Assembly: GCA_963779415.1 (NCBI GenBank)
Contig: CAVZYA010000001.1
Location: 516,519 to 580,518, forward strand
Length of the DNA: 64,000 nucleotides
Source of the DNA: an uncultured Acidobacteriota bacterium
GTDB lineage: Bacteria; Acidobacteriota; Thermoanaerobaculia; UBA5066
Reading direction: 5' to 3'
The notes below the pieces were generated by a model. The model was not told the origin of the DNA. It ran no database searches and saw only the letters and a list, made by a program, of their open reading frames with translations. Position 1 is the stretch's first letter. Each line of letters starts with the position of its first letter. Shown here piece after piece: positions 7,467-21,214 of this stretch. A program made the translations under genes and the position numbers.

Positions 7467-8966
7467 ATGGAGGTCCAAAACATGGCGGAAAAAAGAAATG
7501 TCGAGATCAAGAGCCGACAGGACACGCTGGCTCTGATCACTCCAGAAATCAGGCCCTGGCCTGTCTCACCACCCCCTTCGCCGGAGGAAGTGAAGAAGTC
7601 CTACGCCAAGCGGAAAGCCGAGGTGTTCGGCCAGTGGCTCGAAGACAACATGCGTCTCGAGTATTCCTGGCAGAAACCCGAGGCCCTGCAGGGCCTGAAG
7701 GTCCTCGACATCGGGCTCTGGAGGCTGGGGCACAAGTTCGGCGCCTCCACGCTCGCGCAGGCCGGTGCCGAGGTGATCTGTATCGAGCCCCCCACGGGCG
7801 ACCCGCTCAGACAGCTGACCCCCTTCGGGCGGGAAGAGTACATGCTCGCCGACAAGGAAACCGGCGAGAAGTGCGGCCTCGGGTTCATCGACATACACCG
7901 GAACACGCACTCGGTCACCCTCAACGTCGAGACTCCGGAGGGGCAGGAGCTGTTCAAGAAGCTCGCGGTCCACGCCGACATCGTCCTTGACGGGATGCTC
8001 CCCGGCTACATGGACAACCTCGGGATCGGGTACCGGGACCTCTCCCAGATCAACTCCCGCCTCATCTACGTGAACGTCATGCTCCGGGGATCCTGGGGCC
8101 CGGCAAAAGACCGCGTCTCCAAGTTCGGCCAGTGGGAACTGGATCCCTTCGCGCAGGCGACCAATTCGTACATTCACAACACCGGCTTCGCTCAGGACGC
8201 GCTGCCGCGCGGCAAAGGGGGCGACCCGACCCGGGCCGGGTCGTGGCTCGCCGACTATGTCGCCGGCGAGCAGGCGGCCGTCAACGCCCTCGCGGCGATC
8301 TACTGGCGGGAAGAGGTCAGCAATGAGGGGCAGTTCATCGAGGTGACCGGCGCCGAGACCCTGATGGACATCCTCGACTTCGACATCTCCTGGTACGGCT
8401 TCAACGGCAGCATCAAGGCGCGGACAGGGGGATGGGACCCCAACCTGAACCAGTATGCGTGGAACCCGTGCCGGGACGGCTACATGATGATCGGCGGCCA
8501 GAGCGACCGGCTCTGGTACCGGATCGGCATGTGCATCGAGCGGGACTTCCCGCAGTTCGGCCGGCTCATCCACGAAGACCCCTTCCTGAAGGAAGTCGGC
8601 GCGCGGAACGCCCTCCACGCCCTCATCAAGACCTACACCGTCACGACGCGCTGGCTCCGGGAGACCAATCGGATCGAGGCCGAAGAGAAGCTGATGGACT
8701 ACGAGATCGCGGCCGGCCCGCTCCTCTTCATCGACGAGACCTGCGAGTTCCCCCACTTCAAGTACCGGCCCTGGGTCTACAACTGCGAGACGGACTACGG
8801 GACCGTCCTCTACTCGACGGTCAATAACGCCTATCAGATGAGGACGCCGCACCGGGTCAAGTGGCTCGGGAGACGGCTCGGCAAGGACAACTACGACGTC
8901 TACCAGCGCTGGGCCGGACTGGGCCCGAACAAGGTGGACCAGCTCAAGGGAAAGGGGGCGATCTAA
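7467..8966 (+). CDS. CoA-transferase family III (CaiB/BaiF/Frc-like), subunit 1. Alternative ATG at 7482 has the better RBS (GGAGGT).
   Basis: GLKVLDIG...[22 protein letters not shown] matches the family-III N-terminal Rossmann signature. 499 aa. Stop TAA overlaps the ATG of the next gene (TAATG). Confidence 0.85.
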
Positions 8967-10354
8967 TGGCCGGCGAGATCAGACCCAAGAGTGCGGGCGA
9001 GCTGCATGAGATGCGGGCGCCCTACGAGGAGTTCTGCCGGAAGGCCTTCGATCCCGGCAACGAGCACTCGAAGCCCGAGTCGCTGAAGGGGATCCGGTGG
9101 CTCTCCTGCACGATGTACATCTTCACGCCCCACTCGGCCGCGAACCTGGCCGAGCTGGGCGCCGAGGTGATCAAGATCGAGATCCCCCGGATGGGCGACG
9201 CCATGCGGCACACCTCGCCCTTCAACGAGGCGTACCTCTATCCCCTCCACGACACCCGGCCGGGGACGGGAACCGGGTTCGGGTTCACGAACGCCAACCC
9301 GAACAAGCACTTCATCTCCCTCGACTATCACGTACCGGAGATGCGGGAAGTTTTCTACAACATGGTCCGGCAGAGCGACGGGCTGACCGAGCTCTACCGT
9401 CCCGGGACCTTTGACCGCTGGAAGATGAGCTACCCGACCCTCGCGCAGATCAACCCGCGGTTCATCTACGTCTGGGGCGGCGGGTTCGGCTACGGGCCGA
9501 AGGTCTTCGGGGGCTCCTATGACATCCTCGCGCAGTCCCACGCCGGGTTCGCGTCCATCACCGGAATGCACGACTTCATGGGCGGCCACTGCTCCAAGTC
9601 ATCCAACTGGGTCATGGACTGGGCCTCCGGCACCCTGATCACGTTCGGGATCCTCGCCTCCATTCTCTGGCGCCGGAAGACCGGCCTCGGCACCATGATC
9701 GAGTTCTCGCAGGTGCAGACCTCCACGATGTTCACCGAGTATGCCGTTCCTCTTTACGGCCGGTTCGGCATCGTCCGGCAGCGGTGGGGAAACTGGGACA
9801 CCCAGCTCTGCGCCCACGGGATCATCCTTTGCGGCAAATCCGACTTCCCCGATGCCCAAAACCCGCAGGACAAGTTTGACGCCCGGTACGTCATGGTCTC
9901 CGCCTTCCAGGATGCGGACTTCAAGGAACTCTGCAACGTCGTCGGCCGGAAAGACATCTACGATAAATACAAAACGCACAAGGACCGGCTCGACCCCCGG
10001 GCCCAGGTCGACATCTACCAGGCGCTCGAGAAATGGGCCGGAGACAAGACCCGGGCGGCGGTGGTCAAGGTCCTGACCGACGCCGGCATCCTCGCCTCCC
10101 CCGTCATGAACGACCGGGAAGTCTACGAGTACGAGCACTACCGCGAGCGGGGCACCGTCCGCTGGATCGACGACCCCCTCTTCGGCGACTTCCTCCTGCA
10201 GGCCGGCTACAGCGCCGGCCACCTGGCCAAGACCCCGAGAAGGACGAACTGGATCTGGCGGCCCGTTGGCGCCGACAATGTCAAGATCTACCGGGATCTG
10301 CTCGGCTATCCACTGAGCAAGATCGAGGAGTGGTATGGCAAGGCCTACATCTAA
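8966..10354 (+). CDS. CoA-transferase family III, subunit 2 (paralog of the upstream gene)
   Basis: [42 protein letters not shown] signature. Translationally coupled to the upstream paralog, suggesting a heteromeric enzyme. Confidence 0.85.
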
Positions 10355-10368
10355 AAGGAGGCAGCGCC

Positions 10369-10854
10369 GTGTGTGACATCATCTGGTGCAAGAAGCAGGT
10401 TTCCGGCAAGACGTGCAACACCGTCAATTACCTGGACCCGTACAACTTCTGGAACTGGGAAGGCAAGGTGAACTGCGCCGAGTGCGGGACCGTCTACGCC
10501 ATCCACATGATCCAGGGCTTCATGTACAAGGGGCCAACGGAGAAACCCGGAGAGAAGCCCGACATGAGTCCCCTCTACGCCGACAAGCCGCTGGAGGGCT
10601 ACCGGTGTTACCTTCCCGGGATCGAGGGCAGGACGAGGCCTTGGCAGTGCCTCCCCCGACATATCTACCTCGGCCACGCGGACACGGTGAAGTGGAGCCT
10701 CCGCGGAAGACCCGTGCGTGGCTGGCGTCCTCAGCCGAAGTCTGCAGGCATCGCTGGAAGCTTCGGCCACAAGTGGGATATCGAGAAACTCTCACCGGAG
10801 ATCTGGGCCGAATACCAGGAGAAGCTGAAGAGCGGGAAGCTGAAGGACTGGTGA
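10369..10854 (+). CDS. Hypothetical Cys/Trp-rich small protein (zinc-ribbon-like N-terminus)
   Basis: GTG start 15 nt after the CoA-transferase stop, preceded by AAAGGAGG. Cys pattern C-x4-C-x8-C...C-x2-C. Coding-like composition, 161 aa. Confidence 0.5.
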   Translation: MCDIIWCKKQVSGKTCNTVNYLDPYNFWNWEGKVNCAECGTVYAIHMIQGFMYKGPTEKPGEKPDMSPLYADKPLEGYRCYLPGIEGRTRPWQCLPRHIYLGHADTVKWSLRGRPVRGWRPQPKSAGIAGSFGHKWDIEKLSPEIWAEYQEKLKSGKLKDW

Positions 10855-10876: not shown

Positions 10877-11137
10877 ATGGCCGAGGGAAAACAGTTAACG
10901 CCTGAAGAATTCCTGGCTACGGTTCTCGTGCCGCAGTATGGCCGGGAAAGCGGGCACATGTGCTGGGATTGCAAGCACTTCAAACCGGTTCTGAAGGGCT
11001 CCAAGTTCCCGCCCACCGACACGATCGGCTGGTGCACGCAGATCCACTGGCCCTTCTACTGGTGCGTGACGGACTTCAACGTCGTCAAGAAGTGCTACGC
11101 CTTCGAGAAGGGCATTTACACCTTCAAGAAGTTCTGA
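10877..11137 (+). CDS. Hypothetical small Cys/Trp-rich protein (86 aa)
   Basis: RBS AAAGGAG 8 nt upstream of the ATG. CxxC plus three further Cys and many Trp. Tight spacing with neighbours. Confidence 0.55.
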   Translation: MAEGKQLTPEEFLATVLVPQYGRESGHMCWDCKHFKPVLKGSKFPPTDTIGWCTQIHWPFYWCVTDFNVVKKCYAFEKGIYTFKKF

Positions 11138-11138
11138 C

Positions 11139-11432
11139 ATGGAGGAGAACGTCCGGAAGGAGCTGGATACGCTCACGGGGATGGTGCTGACCTGGAAGAA
11201 GGACTATCTCGGGTCGGTATCATCCGATGAGGACTGCGAGTACCTCGCTCGGGAATTCCTGGACGAGGTGGAGACCCACGTCTACCCCTACGTGAGGAGG
11301 CTCATGGAATGCAATTTCCTCACGGGACCGGAGGCGACGGAGTTTCTCGACTCCTGCTATCGCCAGGCAGAGGAGCTGAACAAAGCCATCCAGCAGCCGG
11401 ACGCCAAACAGGGTGAAACGATAGGAGGGTAA
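11139..11432 (+). CDS. Hypothetical small acidic helical protein (97 aa) ending in ...ETIGG-stop
   Basis: ATG overlaps the upstream stop (TGACATGG). C-terminal diglycine immediately followed by TAA. Next gene starts 3 nt later. Confidence 0.5.
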   Translation: MEENVRKELDTLTGMVLTWKKDYLGSVSSDEDCEYLAREFLDEVETHVYPYVRRLMECNFLTGPEATEFLDSCYRQAEELNKAIQQPDAKQGETIGG

Positions 11433-11434
11433 AC

Positions 11435-11854
11435 ATGGCTGAGAAATGCCGAGTGGGGGTCTGCGGGTACGACCCCGTTCTGGTGAAGGGATACGTCAAG
11501 ACAGGCGAGCGAGCCCTCTGGTGGCACCTGTCGGACGAGGTGTACGAACAATACCAGGTGAAGCCGGGTGACACCGTCACCGGGAAGATCCTGGCGGTTT
11601 ACGACGGGACCGGCACGAAGACGGCCTCCCCGAACGAGCCCTTCGAGTGGAAGTGCCCGAAGGAGTCGGGCCTGGCGGTCCTCCTGCCGCCTGCGACCAT
11701 CGTCAAGTTCAAGCTCTCCGCTTTCCATTTCCTCGAGCTGCTCGTGGAGAAGGTCGGCGGAAAGGACGTCTATCCCGGCAAGGAGCAGATGAGCTTGAAA
11801 TGGTGGCCCGAAGAGAGGATGAAGCTCGACTACAAGGTGCCTTACATCGAGTAG
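11435..11854 (+). CDS. Hypothetical protein (139 aa)
   Basis: RBS GGAGGG upstream. Coding-like composition. Last gene before the intrinsic terminator. Confidence 0.55.
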   Translation: MAEKCRVGVCGYDPVLVKGYVKTGERALWWHLSDEVYEQYQVKPGDTVTGKILAVYDGTGTKTASPNEPFEWKCPKESGLAVLLPPATIVKFKLSAFHFLELLVEKVGGKDVYPGKEQMSLKWWPEERMKLDYKVPYIE

Positions 11855-12334: not shown

Positions 12335-12748
12335 ATGGCAGAGCCGGAAAAGGCCCCACGACGAGAGGTCGTCGAGCAGCTCCTGCCGCTCGTGGTGGAG
12401 TTGATTCCAGGGCAGGCGGCTGAAGGCCTGATCGAAGTGCTCGAGCCGGGCAGCTACGAGGCCCATTCCCTCCGGACGCTTTGCGAGAATCTCCTCAGGA
12501 GAACGAACTGGAGCGTGGAGGAGCAGCAGGTCCTGGAGGACATCAGGAGACAGCTCGACGGGGGCCGGCTCCTCTGCCGGGGCCGACCCGTCGACGGCCG
12601 GGCTCTGGATCTCGCGGTGGTCGAGGAAACCGAAGCAGGCGAGAAGTATCTCTATGTGCCTGTCCACGCCATCAGGCCGCAGGAAGGCGGAGGCGCGGCA
12701 CCCCGGATCGCGCACCAAAGTTCAGCAGACGAGAGCAGGAGCCTATGA
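12335..12748 (+). CDS. Hypothetical protein (137 aa) and candidate ubiquitin-like modifier precursor: helical N-terminal half, then ...KYLYVPVHAIRPQEGGG followed by a 17-aa tail
   Basis: ATG at 12335 (MAEPEK...). Coding-like composition. The C-terminal half resembles a beta-grasp ending in GG(G), like MoaD/ThiS/ubiquitin tails, with a removable extension. Stop overlaps the next ATG (ATGA). Confidence 0.5.
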   Translation: MAEPEKAPRREVVEQLLPLVVELIPGQAAEGLIEVLEPGSYEAHSLRTLCENLLRRTNWSVEEQQVLEDIRRQLDGGRLLCRGRPVDGRALDLAVVEETEAGEKYLYVPVHAIRPQEGGGAAPRIAHQSSADESRSL

Positions 12749-12951
12749 GTTCCAGGTTCGTAGTCACGGAGAGCACCACGGTGGACGATGTTGCCGCGGC
12801 GGGCCGGCCCGACCCCCTCTACTGCAAACTCGGCCTGGGCCAGCAGGCCCGCGTCCTCGCGGACGAGATCGATGCCGCGCTTGGTGGGGATACGAGCTGC
12901 GGGGGCGCCGGACTCGGATATGTTCCGGACATCGTAGAGGTTGAAGAATAG
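12745..12951 (+). CDS. Hypothetical small protein (68 aa) with internal ...CGGAG... motif
   Basis: ATG overlaps the upstream stop; GGAG 8 nt upstream. Could alternatively be a spurious ORF. Confidence 0.35.
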   Translation: MSSRFVVTESTTVDDVAAAGRPDPLYCKLGLGQQARVLADEIDAALGGDTSCGGAGLGYVPDIVEVEE

Positions 12952-13159
12952 CCTGGAGAATCGCGTGGAGATAGAGGCTCCCAAGGACTGGGACCCGAAG
13001 TGCCCAAAGTGCCAGGAAGAGCTTCGACGAATGCTCGAGCTGTCACAGTCGGTCTACGAGGACCTCGACCACGGCGCGGGGTTGTACCGGTTGCCGTTGC
13101 CACCTTGCACGCACCATGCGGCGCAGGGCGAGCACAAAGACGCAGGAGGGGTCGCTTGA
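12941..13159 (+). CDS. Hypothetical small protein (72 aa) with CPKC motif
   Basis: Overlaps the previous ORF by 11 nt. Weak support; composition only. Confidence 0.3.
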   Translation: MKNSLENRVEIEAPKDWDPKCPKCQEELRRMLELSQSVYEDLDHGAGLYRLPLPPCTHHAAQGEHKDAGGVA

Positions 13160-13199
13160 CAGACCCACTTGTGGCTTTCCGGCCGTCGGGCGCCCCGGC

Positions 13200-14411
13200 A
13201 TGATGGATCTGCTGGAGTCCGACCTGGAGCTCGTCGTCCGGTCAGGATTCATCTACCTGCCGCTCCTCTTTGATCCTTCGGTGGCGACGGAGATCGAGGG
13301 GAACGTGGGCAATCACCTGGTCGCCCGGGACGCCGGCAGGCATTTCGTTCGGACGATGAGCCTGCGATCGCTCGTTTCAAGCTACGAGGCTCTCTGGCCG
13401 AAGTCGTACGAGAAGTTGCGGCGGTCGAAGCTGTGCCGGTTCTCCGGGGACCTTTCGCCGGCCGAAACGGGCGCCAGCGAGCGGCTGAAGGAGATCCTCT
13501 TCTCCGTCATGCCGCACTTCGTCAGGAGGGGGAAGCGGCTCGACAGGAGGCGGCTGACCGAGGAGGACGTGCTGGACCTCATCGAGGAGAGAACCGGACT
13601 TCCCGGCGGATACGCCATGGCTGCAGCCAGCGCTCGGGATCCGGGCTCCATCCGGCAGATCCTCGTGGAACTCGAGGAACGCCGCCCGGCGGCCGAGCCG
13701 CTGCCCGAGGGCCGAATGTCTGCGCGGACCCTCGCGGATTGGCTTCTGCGCGCCCAGGAAGCCCGGATTCTGGAAGAGGAGAGCCAGCGACTGACGGGGT
13801 TTCTCTCCGCGCAGGAGGGCCTCGATACGAGGGCGGCCAGGCGGCTGGCGATTTTGCGGTGCGTCGCGGAGAAGGGGACGTTGGAAATCGACGGATTCGG
13901 CTTTCTGAGGACAGGACCCGGCGACGACTACGTGATCTACAAGCGCACCGGCGAGTTCGCTCTCAAGGACTACTACGGTCGGCTCTATCTGTTTCCGGAT
14001 TGCCGGGTTGCCGTGTCGACGGCCGCTGGCCTCAGGCCCTTCGTCGTGGAGACCTACAAGCATCCGTTTCTCGAGGCCCACGACTCCGGCCAGGAGATCT
14101 GCCTGGGCCGCACCACGGCGCGCCGCTTCTCCGGAGCGGCGGCGATCGTCGAGGCTCTGCAGGAGGGAATCAACGCCCTGCTCCATGGCTACAGCAGCCG
14201 GCGCCGAAACGGGTACCACAGACTGGAGGGACTGTTGAGGTCGGTCCGGCTCCCTGGCCCGGACGATCCCGGCTACCCGGAACCGCCGGACGACAGGCCC
14301 CGCTCCAAGCGGCACATCCTGGACGTCGACTTCGACGACTACCGCATCCCGGCCGATCACCCCGGGATCGTGTCGGGTCGGGTCGAGATCACCAACGACG
14401 TCGTGCCGTGA
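13200..14411 (+). CDS. Protein with a C-terminal UBC/E2-like domain (HPF...GQEICLG) and a ~250 aa N-terminal domain of unknown function
   Basis: ATG-ATG at 13200. C-terminal segment LYLFPDCRVAVSTAAGLRPFVVETYKHPFLEAHDSGQEICLGRT...IVEALQEGINALL mirrors the UBC core: beta-sheet, HPN-like motif, then catalytic Cys in G-x-I-C-L. HPF codons at about 14061-14069, Cys codon about 14099. Confidence 0.6.
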   Translation: MMDLLESDLELVVRSGFIYLPLLFDPSVATEIEGNVGNHLVARDAGRHFVRTMSLRSLVSSYEALWPKSYEKLRRSKLCRFSGDLSPAETGASERLKEILFSVMPHFVRRGKRLDRRRLTEEDVLDLIEERTGLPGGYAMAAASARDPGSIRQILVELEERRPAAEPLPEGRMSARTLADWLLRAQEARILEEESQRLTGFLSAQEGLDTRAARRLAILRCVAEKGTLEIDGFGFLRTGPGDDYVIYKRTGEFALKDYYGRLYLFPDCRVAVSTAAGLRPFVVETYKHPFLEAHDSGQEICLGRTTARRFSGAAAIVEALQEGINALLHGYSSRRRNGYHRLEGLLRSVRLPGPDDPGYPEPPDDRPRSKRHILDVDFDDYRIPADHPGIVSGRVEITNDVVP

Positions 14412-14884
14412 TGACGACGGACGACACCCTCTCGCGGGACGAGCCGCCCCGGGCGACGCCGGATCTGTTGCGGGACATAAGAACCATGCGCGCCGGCAGG
14501 CGGCGGAAGGAGCCCTTTCGGACGAGCCTCTACTCCCGGGTCGGGGGTCTGGTGAGGCGATATGGCCTGGACGAGGCGTTCCTCCGGGCGCTCGACTCCC
14601 CGGGCGGCTTCTCCCGGGACGGCCGTCCGGATGCCGTCCGGCCGAAGGGGAAAGCGCCCTATGCTCCTCCCCTCTTTTTCCTTTCCACGGAGAGAGAGCA
14701 CCGCGTGACGACGGTCATCCTGGAGAAAGTGAAGAGCCCGTTCCTCGCGTACGCCACGTCGCCCGACGAGATTCTCCTCTGCGAACGCCTGTTCCGTGAG
14801 GACCCGTCCCTTTCTCAGGAAACGCTCGCGTGCCATCATTTCGAGACGTTGATGCCGGCCGGAGCGGATTCCGGGCCGGGCTGA
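14411..14884 (+). CDS. Hypothetical protein (157 aa), operon member
   Basis: ATG overlaps the upstream TGA (GTGATGA). Coding-like composition. Confidence 0.5.
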   Translation: MTTDDTLSRDEPPRATPDLLRDIRTMRAGRRRKEPFRTSLYSRVGGLVRRYGLDEAFLRALDSPGGFSRDGRPDAVRPKGKAPYAPPLFFLSTEREHRVTTVILEKVKSPFLAYATSPDEILLCERLFREDPSLSQETLACHHFETLMPAGADSGPG

Positions 14885-14899: not shown

Positions 14900-16000
14900 G
14901 TGGAACGGATTTCGCCGCAACGCCGCCGGGAGATCGGGGAGAGAGTCGGCGCATTCCGCGAGAGCCAGGTCGGCGACGCCGTCAATCAGATTCTCGAGTT
15001 CGACAAGACGCCGGCCGACCTCAAGGCCTACATGGACCGGTTCGTCATCGGCCAGGAGCAGGGGAAGAAGATCATCTCCGTCGGCATCGCCTACCATTAC
15101 CGGAGGCTCGCGGCGGCCCTCAGGCGCGCCGTCGTCGAGAACGGCGAGGAGCTGGGCGCCGCCTTGCACGGCGCGGCCACGCCGAAGGCCAACATCCTGA
15201 TCGTGGGGCCCCCCGGCTGCGGGAAGACCTACACGGGCGAGGTCGCCTCCCGGCTCGTGGGGGTGCCGTTCGCCGTGGAGGACCTGACGAAGTTCAGCGA
15301 AACGGGCTACGTGGGCCAGAACGTGAGCGACATCCTCCTGGACCTGCTGATCGCGGCCGGCGGCAACCCCCAGGTGGCCCAGATGGGCATCGTCTACCTG
15401 GACGAGATCGACAAGATCGCCGCCGAGCCGATCGTCTCGAAGGACGTGTCGGGGCGCGGGGTCCAGAAGGGGCTCCTCAAGCTCGTCGAGGGGGCCGAGA
15501 ACACCATCGACCTGGGCCAAGAACGGATCTCCCTTTCCACCCGACACGTCCTGTTCATCGCAGGAGGCGTGTTCGAGGGGCTGGAAGGAACCGTCGGAAA
15601 GCGGATGGAAAGGGATCGTCTCGAAGGCGAGTGGAAGGACCACCTCCTCACGGACGACTTCGTCGGCTGCGGGATGGAGCGGCAGCTCATGGGGAGGTTC
15701 CCCGTTCGGGCCGTCTACGACCCGCTCAGCGTCGAAGACCTCAAGAACATCCTGCTCGAGAGCGAGGAGAGTCCGTCCCGCGCCTACATCGACGACCTGA
15801 AGGCGTGGAACATCGAACTCCGGTTCACGGACGGCGCTCTCACGGAGGTCGCGAGGCGCGCGCAGCAGGATCGGACGGGCGCCCGGGGACTCATCGGCAT
15901 CCTCCACAAGGTGCTTCTGGAGGACATGTACCGGCTTCCGGGCGTCCACACCGGCGAGCTGGTGGTGGACGAGAAGTACATCCGGGAGCGGCTCGGGTGA
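14900..16000 (+). CDS. ClpX-like AAA+ ATPase (unfoldase) lacking the N-terminal zinc-binding domain and the IGF ClpP-docking loop
   Basis: [22 protein letters not shown], Walker [25 protein letters not shown], Walker [30 protein letters not shown] and sensor-2 TGARGL all align with ClpX/HslU. 366 aa, against ~420 aa for canonical ClpX. Confidence 0.85.
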
Positions 16001-16050
16001 GATTCCGGGGGCTCTCGGAGCTGAAGCGCGCGCCATGCTTCGAGGCTCCC

Positions 16051-16803
16051 GTGGGAACCCTGCCGGAGTGGATCCGGATGACGCGTCACTCCCTCGCGAA
16101 GGCCTTCAAGATCAACGAGCTCGTCCGGTCCGTCCACGGGGACAGCTACGAGTGGTACGGATTCACCGTCGCCGAGCGGAGCGATCCGGAGCTGGTCGTG
16201 GACGTTCTTCTTCCGGCCAACGACGAGAACTTCACGGACCACACCCGCGTCGCACCCGAGGCGATCGACGCGTCGAGAGAGTCCCTCCCCCGGGATCGGG
16301 TGATCAACGGCTGGATCCACTCCCACGGGGCCCTGCCGTACGAAGGGTTCTCCTTCGTGGACGAGAGGAACCAGGAGGCCGTGACCGATTACGTGAACAC
16401 GCTTCTCAGGAAGCCGGTGGCCAAGAAGGAGATCCTGATCAGGGACCTCGCGATCCTCGTCGAGGGCCGCTTCTCGGAGAAGGAGCTGGAGCAGGGAAGC
16501 GTCGCGCTCATCACCGACGCCCCCGTCAAGGAGGCCCGGATCATCGAGACCATATACGGAAGCTTCTGCTTCGCCATCGTCATCGGCGACGACGGCTGGC
16601 ACAGGCAGCAGGTCCATTACCGCAGGCGGGGCATCCTTTCCGGGCAGACGACCGAGGAGAGCCGGGACACCGACATCGTCCTTTCGGGCGACGCGCGGCC
16701 GCTCACCGAGGCGGAGATCCAGATGCTGGCGGACGAGGTCCGCACCCGGATCCGGCCGGGCGTGGCCGTTCCACCCGAGCGGTTCGAGCGGGAGGCGACA
16801 TAA
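16051..16803 (+). CDS. JAB/MPN (JAMM) family metalloprotease, deubiquitinase-like
   Basis: Motif GWIHSHGALPYEGFSFVDE = H-x-H-x8-S-x2-D with upstream Glu residues. GTG at 16051 or ATG at 16078. Lies in the long frame after the ClpX-like gene. Confidence 0.75.
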   Translation: MGTLPEWIRMTRHSLAKAFKINELVRSVHGDSYEWYGFTVAERSDPELVVDVLLPANDENFTDHTRVAPEAIDASRESLPRDRVINGWIHSHGALPYEGFSFVDERNQEAVTDYVNTLLRKPVAKKEILIRDLAILVEGRFSEKELEQGSVALITDAPVKEARIIETIYGSFCFAIVIGDDGWHRQQVHYRRRGILSGQTTEESRDTDIVLSGDARPLTEAEIQMLADEVRTRIRPGVAVPPERFEREAT

Positions 16804-16840: not shown

Positions 16841-18118
16841 ATGGAGACGGGACCGGCTCGCGAGAAGGCGCATGACCCGAGGCTGGACCGCCAGCTCCGG
16901 ATCCCGAACTGGAACCAGCGGGCCCTCGAGGAGGCGCGGCTCGCCGTCTTCGGCGACGACGACCTTCTCGCCTCGCTCTACGTCCTCTCCGCCGCGGCCC
17001 TCGGCGTGAACGACGTCGTCCTGATCGCGCCCGCCTGGAATGAGAAGCTGATCGAAATCGCCCGCCAGCTCAATCCGAGGCTCAGGCTGGCCCTCCTCGA
17101 GGGGCTCCACACCCACCCGGTCCTGGAGGAGCTCTTCAGGCCCTGCACGGCCATCGTGGACCTCACCCGCTACGCTCTGGCCAACAAGCTTCTGCTGGAG
17201 ACGGGCTACCGGTCGGGAATTCCGGTGATCCGTGGGTTCTGCCTCGAGAAAGACGGGTGGGAAGGGCTCTCCGTCTTCACCTACAGGCGCGGCCGGGAGT
17301 GGGAGGAGCTCCGGGAGCTCGTCTCGCCCTCCAATCTTCCCTGCGACCACTTCGACGACGCGATTCTGGCCCTCGTCGCGGCCGGCATCGCCCTGGAAGA
17401 AACCAAGAACGTCATCATGGGACACCGGGTGTCGGAGGAGCTGATCGGCTACAGGCGGCCGAAGGTGGTTCCCCTGGAGCCCGACTCCGGCGTCATCATC
17501 GTCGGCGCCGGCGCCCTGGGTAACTTCGTCGGGCTCGGACTGGCCTGTACGGGGCTCCGGCGAATCACGGTCGTCGATCCCGACGTGGTGGACGTGACTA
17601 ACCTCAACAGGCAGGTGCTCCTGGCCGGCGGCGTAGGCCGAAGCAAGGCCGAGGTCCTCTGCGAGCGCCTGCACTCCCTCTTCGGAATCCGGGCGGAGGC
17701 CCGGGTGGCTTATTTCCGGAAGGACTCCGAGCTCGACGCCTCCGACGCTGTCTTCGATTGCGTGGACAACTTCGAGACCCGGGTGATCCTGAGTGAGAGG
17801 TGCCGGGAAGAGGGAAAGGTGCTCATCAGCGGCGGCACGGGCCCTCAGGCCGGACAGGTCATCGTGTTCGATCCGGCGCGCCCGAGCGAAACGCCCGCGG
17901 AGGTTCTGGGACTCTACGAAATCGTCGAGAGGCGGGAGATCGACGCCTTCCGGAGGGAGACGGCGTCCTGCGCCTACCAGCCCGATCCGTCCGTCGTCAT
18001 GACGAATCAGATTATCGGAGGATTGATGGCCGATTCCTATCGTAGGCTCCTGGCCGGAGAGGAGACCCCGAATATCTTCTACGATTCGAGGAACGACGCC
18101 CGGATCTTCGGGGGGTGA
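16841..18118 (+). CDS. ThiF/MoeB/E1-like activating enzyme with a degenerate N-terminal and a canonical C-terminal adenylation domain
   Basis: N-terminal LDRQLRIPNWNQRALEEARLAVFGDDD... lacks GxGxxG. C-terminal IIVGAGALGNFVGLGLACTGLRRITVVDPDVVDVTNLNRQVL is the classic E1 nucleotide-binding motif. Cys in ...ETASCAYQPD is a candidate thioester site. Confidence 0.85.
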   Translation: METGPAREKAHDPRLDRQLRIPNWNQRALEEARLAVFGDDDLLASLYVLSAAALGVNDVVLIAPAWNEKLIEIARQLNPRLRLALLEGLHTHPVLEELFRPCTAIVDLTRYALANKLLLETGYRSGIPVIRGFCLEKDGWEGLSVFTYRRGREWEELRELVSPSNLPCDHFDDAILALVAAGIALEETKNVIMGHRVSEELIGYRRPKVVPLEPDSGVIIVGAGALGNFVGLGLACTGLRRITVVDPDVVDVTNLNRQVLLAGGVGRSKAEVLCERLHSLFGIRAEARVAYFRKDSELDASDAVFDCVDNFETRVILSERCREEGKVLISGGTGPQAGQVIVFDPARPSETPAEVLGLYEIVERREIDAFRRETASCAYQPDPSVVMTNQIIGGLMADSYRRLLAGEETPNIFYDSRNDARIFGG

Positions 18119-18191: not shown

Positions 18192-19415
18192 ATGAGCAGC
18201 GAGAACGACGTCGCGCAGACTCAGGAGGACCAGCCGATCGGCTGGCAGCGCCTCGGCGACGTCCTGACACCGCCGATTCCCGGCTTCGAGGACCTCCTCT
18301 TCCTTCCGAGCCTCGACAATCAGTCCTCCAACATCTACGTCCTGCCGGGGGACTGCGTAACGATCGTGGACCCGGGGAACGATTACACGGCCTTAATGGA
18401 GCTCTTCCCTGCGAGAGCCAGGCCCGAGGACGTCAGGAAGATCGTCCTGACGCACGGGCATTTCGACCACGCCATGGGGGCGCTCGAGTTCCTCAGGACG
18501 TATCCGGATCGCCCCACGGGCGCGCGCATCGAGCTGATCCTCCACGAAGGGGGTCCCGACCAGTTCAAGCAGACGGCGAGGGAGCAGGGCGCCTCCGTGA
18601 CCGAGGTACGGGGCGGGGAGACTCTCGAGCTGAGCGGCCTTTCCTTCGACGTGATCTACACGCCAGGCCATACCATCGACGGCATCGCCCTCTATCACGC
18701 CCCCTCGAGGACCGTCTTCAGCGGCGACGTCGTGCTGCCGCTCGCGGTAGCCGGACCCGATCCCAAGGCCGGGGGAAGCCTGGACCAGTACCTGTTCGGG
18801 CTGAGGGCGTTGCTCGCGAGGGAGATCGAGAACGTCCTCCCGGGCCACGGCCCCGTCGTCGGCCCGGGCGGGAGGAAGGTCATCGAGCAGACCTACGAGG
18901 CCGTCATGATGAAGCTCCTGGGGGTCGAGAAGCCGATCCCGTGGATCCAGGGTGCCATTCAGCTCGCGGAGCGCGGGCTGCTGGAAGAGGCCGTTTTCTG
19001 CGCCGGGAAAGAGCTGGCCCGCGACCCGGGGCACGCCAAGGCCCTCGAGCTCAAGGCCGTGTGCCTCAACGATCTCGGGCGGTCGTCTGAGGCCCTCGAG
19101 GTCCTGGATCGGCTGCAGGAGCTGCAGGCCGGCGACGATGCGTTCATCCACGTCGGCAGGGGATATGCCCTCATGGGGCTTGGCCAGTTCGAGGAGAGCG
19201 TCAAGTGCTTCGACGCCGCTCTCCGCATCACGCCGGGCCTGAGGGACGCGCTCGTCTACAAGGGGATGGCCCTCCATCTCTCGGGGAACCACGAGGAGGC
19301 CATGGACATCGAGCCCTTCAGGACGGAGTTCATGGGGCGGTTCCGGAGCGAGCTGCTCAAGGCGTCGCGGCCCGCCCCGAAGGATGGCCTCGCCGAAGGC
19401 ACTGGAAAGGCCTGA
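18192..19415 (+). CDS. Metallo-beta-lactamase-fold hydrolase fused to C-terminal TPR repeats
   Basis: LTHGHFDH (HxHxDH), TPGHT and a later His-Gly; C-terminal half has TPR-like A/L/G/Y spacing. 407 aa. Last gene of the operon. Confidence 0.8.
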   Translation: MSSENDVAQTQEDQPIGWQRLGDVLTPPIPGFEDLLFLPSLDNQSSNIYVLPGDCVTIVDPGNDYTALMELFPARARPEDVRKIVLTHGHFDHAMGALEFLRTYPDRPTGARIELILHEGGPDQFKQTAREQGASVTEVRGGETLELSGLSFDVIYTPGHTIDGIALYHAPSRTVFSGDVVLPLAVAGPDPKAGGSLDQYLFGLRALLAREIENVLPGHGPVVGPGGRKVIEQTYEAVMMKLLGVEKPIPWIQGAIQLAERGLLEEAVFCAGKELARDPGHAKALELKAVCLNDLGRSSEALEVLDRLQELQAGDDAFIHVGRGYALMGLGQFEESVKCFDAALRITPGLRDALVYKGMALHLSGNHEEAMDIEPFRTEFMGRFRSELLKASRPAPKDGLAEGTGKA

Positions 19416-19540: not shown

Positions 19541-21214
19541 GTGAGCACGATTCCCGAAAACTATCTTCCCCCGAAGGAGTTCCAACCCGAGCGGATCTAC
19601 AAGCTGAAGGAGTTCGCGAGCTACCCGGATCCGCTGAACAGCACCGAGGAGCTACTCGACAAACAGATCGCCGCGGGCCGGGGCGACAGCCCGGCGGTCC
19701 TCTTTGCGGACAAGGTCCTGACCTACAAGCAGCTTCTGGGGGCGTCCTGCAAGATCGGGAACGCGCTCCGGAAGCTGGGGGTCGAGGAGTCGGACCGGGT
19801 GTTGCTCCGCTCTCCGAACGTTCCGCCCGCCCTCTTCACGAACTTCGGGGTCCTGAGGCTCGGGGCGGTCATCGTCCCGACCTCTCACATGCTCTCCCCC
19901 CCGGAGATCATCCACATCGCCAACAACGCCGAGGCGAAGGTGATCGTGGTGGCGTCCGCGTTCCTCGAAGGGGTCATCAAGGCGCGCCCGAACCTGAAGA
20001 CCGTCAAGCACGTCATCGTCTTCGGCGGCCAGCCCGAGGAGCTGAAGAAGCAGGATCTTCTCTGCTACGAGGAGCTCGTCGCGAACGAGGCGCCGGCCTT
20101 CGCCCCGGTACGCCGTCCGCGCAAAGCCGTCGCCGTTCTTCTTTACACCTCGGGCACGACCGGCCTGCCGAAAGGGACGGTCCACTACCAGGAAGAGGCC
20201 CTGATCGTTCCGGACACCTTCGGCAAGTACGGATGGAACGTCCAGCCGGAAGACATCATCTGCGGACCCGCGCCCATCTCGCTGGCCGGCGGATACTCGA
20301 CCGTGGCGACGATCCCCTTCCGGTTCGGCGCCGCGGCCTCCCTGATTCCCAAATTCACGCCGGACGGGCTCTTCGAGACGGTCCAGAATCACAAGGTGAC
20401 GATCCTGAGCGCCCTCCCCACGGCGTACCGCAAGATGCTCGAGGTTCCCGGCGCGGAGAAGAAATACAACCTCTCCACCCTCCGCGTCCTGACCGGTGGC
20501 GGTGAATCGCTGACCGCAAAAACCTACAACGACTGGAAGGGGCGCTTCGGCCAGGAGATCTACGAGGGGCTCGGCACGTCGGAGATGATGTACGTCTTCG
20601 TCTCGAGCGTGGTGACGCGGAAAGTCAAGCCCGGCGCGATCGGCACCGCCGTCCCCGGTTACGAGATCCAGGTCATCACCGAGGAGGGAAAGGTCGCCAA
20701 GCCCGGAGAGCTGGGCCGGCTTTACGCCCGCGGGCCGACGGGGACGCTCTACTGGCGCCCGTACGAGGACGGCGGCAGCATGCTGGAGAAGCAGAAAGCC
20801 GTCATCCGCGAGGGGTGGGTGCTCGTCGGGGACTTCTGCACGATAGACGACGACGGGTACCTCAGCTTCGTGTCGCGCCAGGAGGACCTGATCAAGAGCT
20901 CCGGCTACCGGATCGGACCCGAGGAGGTCGAGGACGCTCTTCTCAAGCACCCGGCCGTGGCGGACGCCGGCGTGATCGGGGTTCCGGACCCCGTCCGGGG
21001 CCACAACGTCAAGGCCTTCGTCCTCCTGAGGCCCGGACAGACGCCGAGCGACGAGCTGAAGCAGCAGATCATCGACAGTTGCCGAGATCACATCGCGATC
21101 TACAAGCTTCCCCGCATCATCGAATTCACGAGCGAACTCCCGCGCACCCTCCAGGGGAAGCTCCTCCGGCGGGTTCTGCGGGACAAGGACAAGGGGGCGG
21201 CTCCCGCGAGCTAG
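19541..21214 (+). CDS. AMP-forming acyl-CoA synthetase/ligase (benzoate/aryl-CoA ligase-like)
   Basis: GTG at 19541 with AGGAGG 11 nt upstream. LLYTSGTTGLPKG (AMP-binding box I), YEGLGTSE, and C-terminal ...GKLLRRVL with Lys. Confidence 0.85.
   Translation: MSTIPENYLPPKEFQPERIYKLKEFASYPDPLNSTEELLDKQIAAGRGDSPAVLFADKVLTYKQLLGASCKIGNALRKLGVEESDRVLLRSPNVPPALFTNFGVLRLGAVIVPTSHMLSPPEIIHIANNAEAKVIVVASAFLEGVIKARPNLKTVKHVIVFGGQPEELKKQDLLCYEELVANEAPAFAPVRRPRKAVAVLLYTSGTTGLPKGTVHYQEEALIVPDTFGKYGWNVQPEDIICGPAPISLAGGYSTVATIPFRFGAAASLIPKFTPDGLFETVQNHKVTILSALPTAYRKMLEVPGAEKKYNLSTLRVLTGGGESLTAKTYNDWKGRFGQEIYEGLGTSEMMYVFVSSVVTRKVKPGAIGTAVPGYEIQVITEEGKVAKPGELGRLYARGPTGTLYWRPYEDGGSMLEKQKAVIREGWVLVGDFCTIDDDGYLSFVSRQEDLIKSSGYRIGPEEVEDALLKHPAVADAGVIGVPDPVRGHNVKAFVLLRPGQTPSDELKQQIIDSCRDHIAIYKLPRIIEFTSELPRTLQGKLLRRVLRDKDKGAAPAS

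Follow-up and report, generated by a model that had tools for sequence, protein, structure and literature searches.

The ubiquitin-like conjugation systems so far characterised in bacteria are few (Cap2/Cap3 of the cyclic oligonucleotide-based antiphage signalling system, CBASS; Bil; and Bub), and all of them are tied to phage defence. The Bil system (BilABCD; class 6d of Iyer et al. 2006, in whose paper classes 6a-6e are set out and the word AAA is absent; PMC1779556) is the closest known system to the locus described here. It is composed of a ubiquitin-like protein (Ubl), a conjugating enzyme (E2), a JAB peptidase and a tandem activating enzyme (E1) of IAD-AAD type; no dedicated ligase (E3) is present and the E2 is proposed to choose the targets (PMC10557695). 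The window, by which we mean the whole stretch of 64,000 nucleotides that was analysed (contig CAVZYA010000001.1 of an uncultured Acidobacteriota bacterium, positions 516,519 to 580,518), carries a gene for a protein of 403 amino acids (aa), referred to below as the E2-like protein. We consider it probable that this protein is the conjugating (E2-type) enzyme of an undescribed bacterial ubiquitin-like modification system. The decisive support comes from the operon in which the gene lies, and this context is independent of the fold evidence and stronger than it. We found no description in the literature of an operon which combines E1, E2, JAB and ClpX-like genes. The core genes of the operon are the following.

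12335..12748, plus strand, modifier precursor of 137 aa, exactly matching a public gene call
13200..14411, plus strand, E2-like protein of 403 aa
14411..14884, plus strand, p146, a mostly helical protein of 157 aa, whose start overlaps the stop of the E2-like gene (TGATG, 14409-14413)
14900..16000, plus strand, ClpX-like AAA+ ATPase of 366 aa, with AAA_2 and ClpB_D2-small matches
15997..16803, plus strand, JAB/MPN-type metallopeptidase of 268 aa, its start and the AAA+ stop sharing 4 nt (15997-16000)
16841..18118, plus strand, E1-like activating enzyme of 425 aa, matching ThiF (1.7e-35) in two stretches

All four Bil components have a counterpart in this operon. BilB has a C-E-H-H motif with its His after the Cys, whereas here a His-Pro stands before the Cys, as in canonical E2s; the E2-like protein carries an N-terminal extension of ~205 aa which the Bil E2 does not have; and the ~80-aa CYS insertion of the Bil E1 would find no room in the active half of the E1 here (~220 aa). 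The ClpX-like AAA+ protein and p146 are extra core genes, there is no Pfam Prok-E2 or PADLOC match, and the neighbourhood is metabolic, not defensive. An E2 with C-E-H-H and an E1 with IAD-AAD plus a CYS domain, which mark a Bil member (features from PMC10557695), are not found in the window, although the E1 here does have IAD and AAD halves. CBASS Cap2/Cap3 and Bub (6E/DUF6527) share with it minimal E2 folds without the C-terminal helix pair, E1s of ThiF type and JAB peptidases (PMC11601596). Cap2, however, is an E2-E1 fusion which conjugates a CD-NTase, while the E2-like and E1 genes here are separate and 2.4 kb apart; Bub works through Ser/Tyr oxyesters with no catalytic Cys, while the E2-like protein and the E1 here keep their cysteines and a dedicated modifier ending in diglycine (GG) is present. 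Of the E1 here, the ThiF part alone is matched by the PADLOC E1-E2 models for type II CBASS, and the operon contains no CD-NTase. The kind of system, ubiquitin-like conjugation, is known; the unannotated E2-like family, the unannotated modifier family and the proposed coupling to an unfoldase would make it a new variant. If our reading is true, the locus would represent a fourth class of bacterial ubiquitin-like conjugation, distinguished by an E2-like family with a eukaryote-like His-Pro-x...Cys arrangement, by GG-plus-tail modifiers including zinc-ribbon and GNAT fusions, by an IAD-AAD E1 and, uniquely, by having both a JAB peptidase and an AAA+ unfoldase with pore loops among its core partners.

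The public gene call for the E2-like open reading frame (ORF; P0001, on a contig of 2.18 Mb) is 100% identical to it. The longer frame 13116-14411 comprises 431 codons, and its extension before the Met at 13200 is not conserved; the public gene calls and the family alignment both begin with the ATG at 13200. A 90%-clustered database contains at least 667 members of the family, all of ~400 aa, all called "hypothetical" and none with a Pfam domain, and a set of 1.84 billion representatives contains ~160 clusters of it at 50% identity. It was previously unannotated and is absent from Pfam and NCBIfam. Conservation was analysed in a close set of 65 homologs and in a distant set of 96 representatives of the 50% clusters (370-590 aa). 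The parts of the protein, as delimited from AlphaFold models and conservation, are listed here.

13200..13811, plus strand, N-terminal region, aa 1-204 (from AlphaFold secondary structure, the predicted local distance difference test score (pLDDT) and conservation)
13812..14411, plus strand, C-terminal domain, aa 205-403 (from AlphaFold models, Foldseek and conservation)
14001-14003, plus strand, codon of C268, a second cysteine, invariant in the close set
14061-14069, plus strand, codons of H288-P289-F290, an HPx-type loop
14100-14102, plus strand, codon of C301, the candidate catalytic Cys, in the context S-G-Q-E-I-C-L

In the close set the residues L264, F265, P266, C268, V270, P280, Y286, H288, P289, L291, Q298, C301 and G323 are invariant, and so is the stretch R334-Y339, called the RRRNGY loop below. 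Among the distant representatives C301 is kept in 91/91, P289 in 89/90, H288 in 88/90 and Y286 in 87/89, followed by F290 (82/91) and G234 (75/77). C268 is kept in only 52 of 85, with Ala in 30, and the RRRNGY loop is degenerate to N-[GP]-Y. Because C301, H288 and P289 are retained across close and distant homologs alike, the motif is real, and the H-P...C pair is a superfamily-wide signature under extreme selection and not a chance motif. An invariant Cys a few residues downstream of a conserved His-Pro, as expected of a UBC/E2 enzyme, is thus found, and there is no conserved His downstream of C301. The preliminary description had quoted this segment (residues ~262-328) as an E2 motif; H288-P289-F290 followed by Q-x-I-C301-L is present there with near-universal conservation. 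Its placing of the Cys in G-x-I-C-L holds for the I-C-L part, the exact spacing being off by one extra residue between G and C (S-G-Q-E-I-C-L). The N-terminal domain, which it had put at ~250 aa, is ~205 aa long, the first helix of the C-terminal domain occupying residues 210-225. For the N-terminal region itself AlphaFold predicts a beta-beta-alpha-beta-beta unit and, from there to about residue 205, a bundle of helices; P21, L22, D25, E31, F107 and W181 are invariant there in the 65 close homologs, and it gave zero Foldseek, Pfam or PDB matches. We infer for this module a role in binding a partner, the E1 or the substrate.

The fold was studied with AlphaFold2 models of the full-length protein and of the domain alone (residues 205-403). 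The full-length model has a mean pLDDT of 75.7, and residues 220-300 reach 85-94. Both models give the same order of elements: a helix (210-225), six short strands (227-273), the Y-K-H288-P-F290 loop, a short strand ending at C301, a helix (313-329) and the RRRNGY loop; at the C-terminal end a disordered linker of low confidence (342-372) leads to a confident and conserved tail (F378...T398-N399). With canonical UBC/E2 enzymes (UQ_con; HPN...C) the domain as modelled shares the order of elements, namely N-terminal helix, beta-meander, H-P-x loop, I-C-L Cys and long helix. It differs from them in having Phe for Asn (90% conserved), an HPx-to-Cys gap of 10 residues against 7, six short strands, the RRRNGY loop and the conserved C-terminal tail in place of alpha3/alpha4, and no detectable sequence homology. 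When the domain-only model was compared with the PDB by Foldseek, the best 50 matches included 47 E2 enzymes and the E2 variant FTS, although E2 chains are redundant in the PDB and these 48 matches amount to one fold-level signal, which counts against reading them as many. The best structural matches are Ubc9, UBE2L6, UbcH7, Rad6 (Ubc2), UBE2G2 and UBE2S, and Cdc34, UBE2G1, UbcH10, Ubc13, UbcH5, UBE2W and UBE2H are among the further E2s within the best 50. The family was also aligned by hhalign with six typed-in E2 sequences, with 200 column shuffles as the null. In the resulting register helices fall on helices, helix 313-329 being matched to the crossover helix, HPF to HPN and Q-x-I-C-L to G-x-I-C-L. 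The two C-terminal UBC helices are missing from Cap2 and BubB as well (PMC11601596), so that the lack of this pair in the domain is no objection.

A number of results weigh against the assignment as an E2, and they are collected here. The Foldseek matches to E2s are weak (best E 0.05, probability <= 0.63, template modelling score <= 0.39, root-mean-square deviation ~9 A), and a control search against BFVD gave unrelated viral proteins at E 0.01-0.1; since unrelated proteins score alike, the E-values alone prove nothing and only the coherence of the list is informative. The full-length model gave no Foldseek match in the PDB. Pfam, NCBIfam and PADLOC scans of the window protein, of the 65 close and of 10 distant members returned no relevant match, the Pfam E2 families (UQ_con, Prok-E2_A-E) matched 0/65 close and 0/10 distant members (E <= 10 or E <= 1), and a family profile search of PDB sequences gave noise only. 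The hhalign score of 14.3 against the typed E2s is not significant, 30 of the 200 shuffles reaching it. The model has six short strands, not four. The Asn of the HPN triad is absent: almost every close member has Phe at position 290, and in neither set does Asn predominate there. The stabilisation of the oxyanion or of the loop must therefore be achieved differently, or the enzyme may be tuned for a different acceptor; UFC1 and ATG3 are known E2-like enzymes which also have no Asn in this position. Nor is the modifier recognisable as a beta-grasp protein, either in a profile search of the PDB or by Pfam on 38 members (no ThiS/Ubl), and its hhalign comparison with typed ThiS/MoaD/SAMP/Urm1/CysO sequences is not significant (33/150 shuffles reach the score).

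Taken together, the results are compatible with a minimal UBC fold, which is also the best match for the domain; the fold is not proven, and homology to UBC is likely but likewise not proven. The preliminary description had proposed a UBC/E2-like core and had named a non-UBC fold prediction for residues ~250-400 as the outcome which would speak against it; the AlphaFold domain model shows the UBC order of elements and the best 50 Foldseek matches are dominated by E2s. The core is thereby supported by the model and by the operon context, and its homology by sequence profile is not significant. As for the helices expected after the Cys, the long helix 313-329 is there, and the further UBC-type helices are replaced by the RRRNGY loop, the linker and the tail.

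The operon begins with the modifier gene. Its product has a conserved core of 119 aa ending in ...AIRPQEGG (the GG codons end at 12691), followed by a non-conserved tail of 18 aa. The motif [AV][IV][KR]PQEGG is found in 119/120 modifier homologs, after which come unconserved tails of 0-76 aa; in the orthologs adjoining E2-like genes ..QEGG is present in 62/62, with tails of 0-151 aa, and six of them stop exactly at GG. The modifier lies directly upstream of the E2-like gene in 63 of 70 loci, at a distance of 0.2-1.0 kb. A conserved core, GG and a cleavable extension are also the precursor logic of ubiquitin and of BilA/BubA, and the operon supplies a JAB peptidase which could make the cut. In other lineages (L004:9339-9926; L002:9144-9956) in-frame fusions follow the GG, namely to a CPxC zinc-ribbon protein, to a GNAT acetyltransferase and to a protein of 68-76 aa with the sequence "SSRFVVTE", which is reminiscent of the fusions of ubiquitin with ribosomal proteins. 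In the window (12692-13159) these fusion partners appear as a short tail and as separate or overlapping ORFs, two of which are given here.

12745..12951, plus strand, ORF of 68 aa (MSSRFVVTE...), overlapping the modifier gene and forming a post-GG tail in relatives
12941..13159, plus strand, small CPxC zinc-ribbon protein, found by tblastn to L001/L004 genes, with homology over 12983-13132

The "SSRFVVTE" sequence is the post-GG tail of P0273, P0275, P0276, P0278 and P0284 (195 aa), and the 68-aa ORF of the window has no Pfam match. The zinc-ribbon is fused after the modifier GG in L004, P0311, P0312, P0331 and P0354; the window protein gives faint Zn_ribbon matches. Three other proteins were considered as the modifier and set aside: the E1, whose C-terminal ...IFGG (18107-18118) is not conserved in orthologs and is probably coincidental; a 97-aa protein further upstream (11139-11432), whose C-terminal GG is not conserved; and a 106-aa coiled protein ending in GVPHG in L001 and L004, which is missing in the window and in most loci. 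This last protein (106-108 aa, coiled-coil-like, with a conserved ...LLWGVPHG end) lies between the E2-like gene and p146 at L001:11226-11546 and L004:11238-11564, and tblastn found no counterpart of it in the window.

Downstream of the E2-like gene, p146 follows in nearly all loci. It is fast-evolving (34% mean identity in the alignment), has no Pfam match and is possibly an adaptor. The AAA+ protein scores 258 bits against the NCBIfam ClpX model, below the cut-off of 359, with model positions 59-401 covered; it is called ClpX-like and not ClpX. The GYVG pore loop and Walker A are present in 55/55 of its orthologs, while an IGF-like tripeptide and an N-terminal CxxC are found in 0/55 each. 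Judged by these motifs it is predicted to be an active translocase, unable to dock ClpP in the known way because none of the 55 orthologs has an IGF loop.

Both the signature and the family profile of JAB/MPN+ peptidases are found in the next protein family. The residues E52, H108-S-H110, S119 and D122 are invariant in 40 orthologs, and HxH..S..D is present in 53/53; Prok-JAB matches 18 of the 40 (best E 5e-4) and JAB matches 3, the window protein itself having no Prok-JAB match. Its aa ~140-268 form a conserved C-terminal domain of ~130 aa with invariant G167, T173-D174, E184, G188, G200-W201 and G216, for which no family match was obtained; a Toprim-like identity of this half (1t6t, E 0.015), suggested by a profile of four sequences, vanished with a profile of 40. 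The E1 consists of two ThiF halves, of which the N-terminal one is degenerate (no GxGxxG, a conserved RxxRQxR) and the second is active (GAGALG, ~220 aa). A conserved Cys377 lies in SCAYQPDP, and the best PDB matches are to yeast Uba1, with both ThiF halves matched.

The conservation of the operon was examined by a locus scan with one genome per species, which yielded the 70 loci. Most of them are in Thermodesulfobacteriota (Desulfobacterales, Desulfobaccales, Syntrophobacterales), and the others are in Binatia, Methylomirabilota, one metagenome-assembled genome (MAG) of Acidithiobacillales and one of Nitrospiraceae. One of the loci belongs to a cultured isolate, Desulfoferrobacter suflitae DRH4. 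On contigs of sufficient length the genes for modifier, E2-like protein, p146, AAA+, JAB and E1 stand in this order on one strand, the E1 gene being sometimes relocated ~2 kb upstream. More distant branches of the family retain the core order of GG modifier, E2-like protein, JAB and E1. In L077 a 167-aa protein ending in SHDEGG plus 10 residues is followed by an E2-like protein of 519 aa, a 563-aa Prok-JAB protein (1.7e-8, 34.7 bits against a cut-off of 25 bits) and a 500-aa tandem ThiF protein; a GG-plus-tail protein, an E2-like gene and a JAB gene are present in L078 and in L079; and in L076 the upstream protein ends in AAKQQGG plus 8 residues. Homology of the upstream proteins of L079 and L076 to the window modifier runs along their entire length as far as the GG. 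A four-gene core of GG modifier, E2-like protein, JAB and E1 is therefore superfamily-wide, and the AAA+ protein and p146 define the clade of the window.

From these genes, their motifs, their conservation and their linkage we infer the following chemical steps, targets and unfoldase coupling. The JAB peptidase would trim the modifier precursor after Gly119 (...PQEGG|tail), and the tandem E1 would adenylate the exposed Gly119 and take the modifier as a thioester on its crossover-loop Cys377. The modifier thioester would then be passed to Cys301 of the E2-like domain, where the local structure may be set by the Y-x-H-P-F loop, and from there be transferred to amino groups of the targets. Among the conserved genes there is no E3 candidate of RING, HECT or other type, and the ~205-aa N-terminal module may pick the targets, replacing a separate E3. 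In the clade of the window, the ClpX-like hexamer, p146 and the JAB peptidase may act on the modified proteins, which would be unfolded or remodelled during removal of the tag, a step which can be likened to that of Rpn11 and the AAA ring in the lid and base of the proteasome. As with the Rpn11 JAMM peptidase and the AAA ring, a JAB gene stands here back to back with a GYVG AAA+ gene and adjoins a tagging cascade; unlike the proteasome and ClpX, no peptidase chamber partner is evident, and the ClpX-like protein has no zinc-binding domain or IGF loop. A physical coupling of the JAB and AAA+ proteins would be pure conjecture.

More tentatively, and with less confidence than an even chance would call for, the locus may be a self-contained "tag-and-unfold" machine, part of the core genome in Thermodesulfobacteriota, Binatia and Methylomirabilota and acting on a linked coenzyme A (CoA)-transferase module and not on phages. 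Such a machine would join a GG modifier which is unrecognised by sequence, a tandem eukaryote-style E1, an E2 with the His-Pro...Cys signature of eukaryotic E2s and with its own targeting module, and a JAB peptidase translationally coupled to a ClpP-independent ClpX-like unfoldase. If true, it would be a functional counterpart of the logic of ubiquitin, Rpn11 and the AAA ring. In anaerobic lineages and in those cycling methane or sulfur, the system is found on the chromosome and in synteny, and with the cultured host DRH4 it can be tested directly whether bacteria have had tagging coupled to unfolding apart from defence.

The alternative which survives best, and which we still hold to be improbable, keeps the E2 role and makes the system an anti-phage defence module of the Bil, CBASS or 6A-MBL type and not a housekeeping or metabolic regulator. 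The parallel of its parts with Bil (Ubl, E2, JAB, IAD-AAD E1; PMC10557695) speaks for it, as do a linked gene of metallo-beta-lactamase (MBL) fold, as in class 6a of Iyer et al. (PMC1779556), the weak matches of the E1 to the PADLOC Cap2 E1-E2 models and to the NCBIfam 6A-MBL cap2_3, and a distant branch which adjoins a Ser/Thr kinase and a NUDIX gene. However, there are zero PADLOC model matches for the E2-like protein, JAB, modifier and p146, and the genes around the operon serve metabolism or housekeeping (CoA-transferases, ABC transporter, formate-dehydrogenase-like, GGDEF, Usp). The operon is also widespread in Thermodesulfobacteriota, Binatia and Methylomirabilota, with synteny extending over entire orders, and not patchy.

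A slightly smaller chance is given to a sulfur-carrier pathway, in which the GG protein would be a carrier of the ThiS/MoaD/CysO/QbsE type, trimmed by JAB, adenylated by the E1 and turned into a thiocarboxylate, and Cys301 a persulfide or acyl relay for a thio-metabolite linked to the CoA-transferases. The CysO-Mec+-MoeZ and QbsCDE systems do have the same layout of a GG protein with extra residues as cleavable tail, removal by JAB and adenylation of ThiF type (see also PMC1779556), but they are without an E2-like protein or AAA+, and their E1 is a homodimeric single ThiF, usually with a rhodanese. The best NCBIfam matches of the active half of the E1 here are ThiF/MoeB, the recurrent neighbours are CoA-transferases, Cys-rich small proteins and an acyl-CoA synthetase, and the second cysteine C268 is kept throughout the close family, all of which would suit such a pathway. 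On the other hand, the E1 carries no rhodanese domain and the conserved core no cysteine desulfurase; the E1 is a tandem inactive/active pseudo-dimer with Uba1 as best PDB match, as in BilD and eukaryotic E1s (PMC10557695); the core includes a gene for an AAA+ unfoldase with pore loops; E2s alone give coherent fold matches; and the metabolic module is present in only ~17/70 loci. Neither a ThiS/MoaD-like beta-grasp nor a rhodanese or partner sulfurtransferase was found.

Equally improbable is that the domain has no UBC fold and is some other Cys/His enzyme or adaptor (for instance a cysteine peptidase, an E3-like ligase or a scaffold presenting the modifier to the AAA+ ring) with conjugation by E1 only, as in archaeal SAMP/UbaA, for while the negative outcome of every sequence-based E2 test, the Foldseek matches individually within the noise range, the missing Asn of HPN and the existence of E2-independent conjugation in SAMP and Urm1 would fit it, it is without positive evidence and is opposed by the E2-dominated match list combined with the way in which helix, meander, H-P-x, Cys and helix are ordered and spaced, by the dedicated JAB peptidase which already covers processing and deconjugation, and by a His upstream of the Cys in an H-P context, which is E2-like and atypical for papain-like enzymes.

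The genes which flank the conjugation operon of the E2-like protein in the window are as follows.

7467-8966 and 8963-10354, plus strand, two family III CoA-transferases (Pfam CoA_transf_3)
10369-10854, 10877-11137, 11139-11432 and 11435-11854, plus strand, four small proteins of 161, 86, 97 and 139 aa with no family match, the first two Cys-rich
18192..19415, plus strand, MBL-fold protein with C-terminal tetratricopeptide repeats (TPR), Lactamase_B 5.7e-24 and TPR matches

In comparison with L001 and L004, three of the small proteins are 72-83% identical and the 97-aa one 47-60%, against 43-47% for the E2-like protein. The seven genes (two CoA-transferases, four small proteins and MBL-TPR) form a module which in ~17/70 loci lies next to the conjugation operon, in one orientation or the other. 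Given this recurrent adjacency, the module may be a client of the conjugation system or regulate it. MBL-TPR is the last gene of the CoA-transferase module in other genomes, and in the window it is displaced to behind the E1. Directly downstream of it lies a gene for an AMP-binding acyl-CoA synthetase (19613-21214), which adds to the CoA-metabolism flavour of the region.

Further observations were made on the distant branches. In L077 (L077:1-10556) the four core genes are followed by an unknown protein of 266 aa and a Ser/Thr protein kinase; the operon also has a NUDIX hydrolase and an NAD-synthase-like PP-loop protein, and no ClpX-like gene is present on this stretch. At its start the contig of L080 (L080:1-1531) carries the C-terminal end of a further E2-like gene (...RIKSGKVGITNEEF), which lies directly upstream of P0172 and suggests tandem E2-like paralogs in this lineage. 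Downstream in L080, a Cys-rich protein of 212 aa stands in place of the JAB gene.

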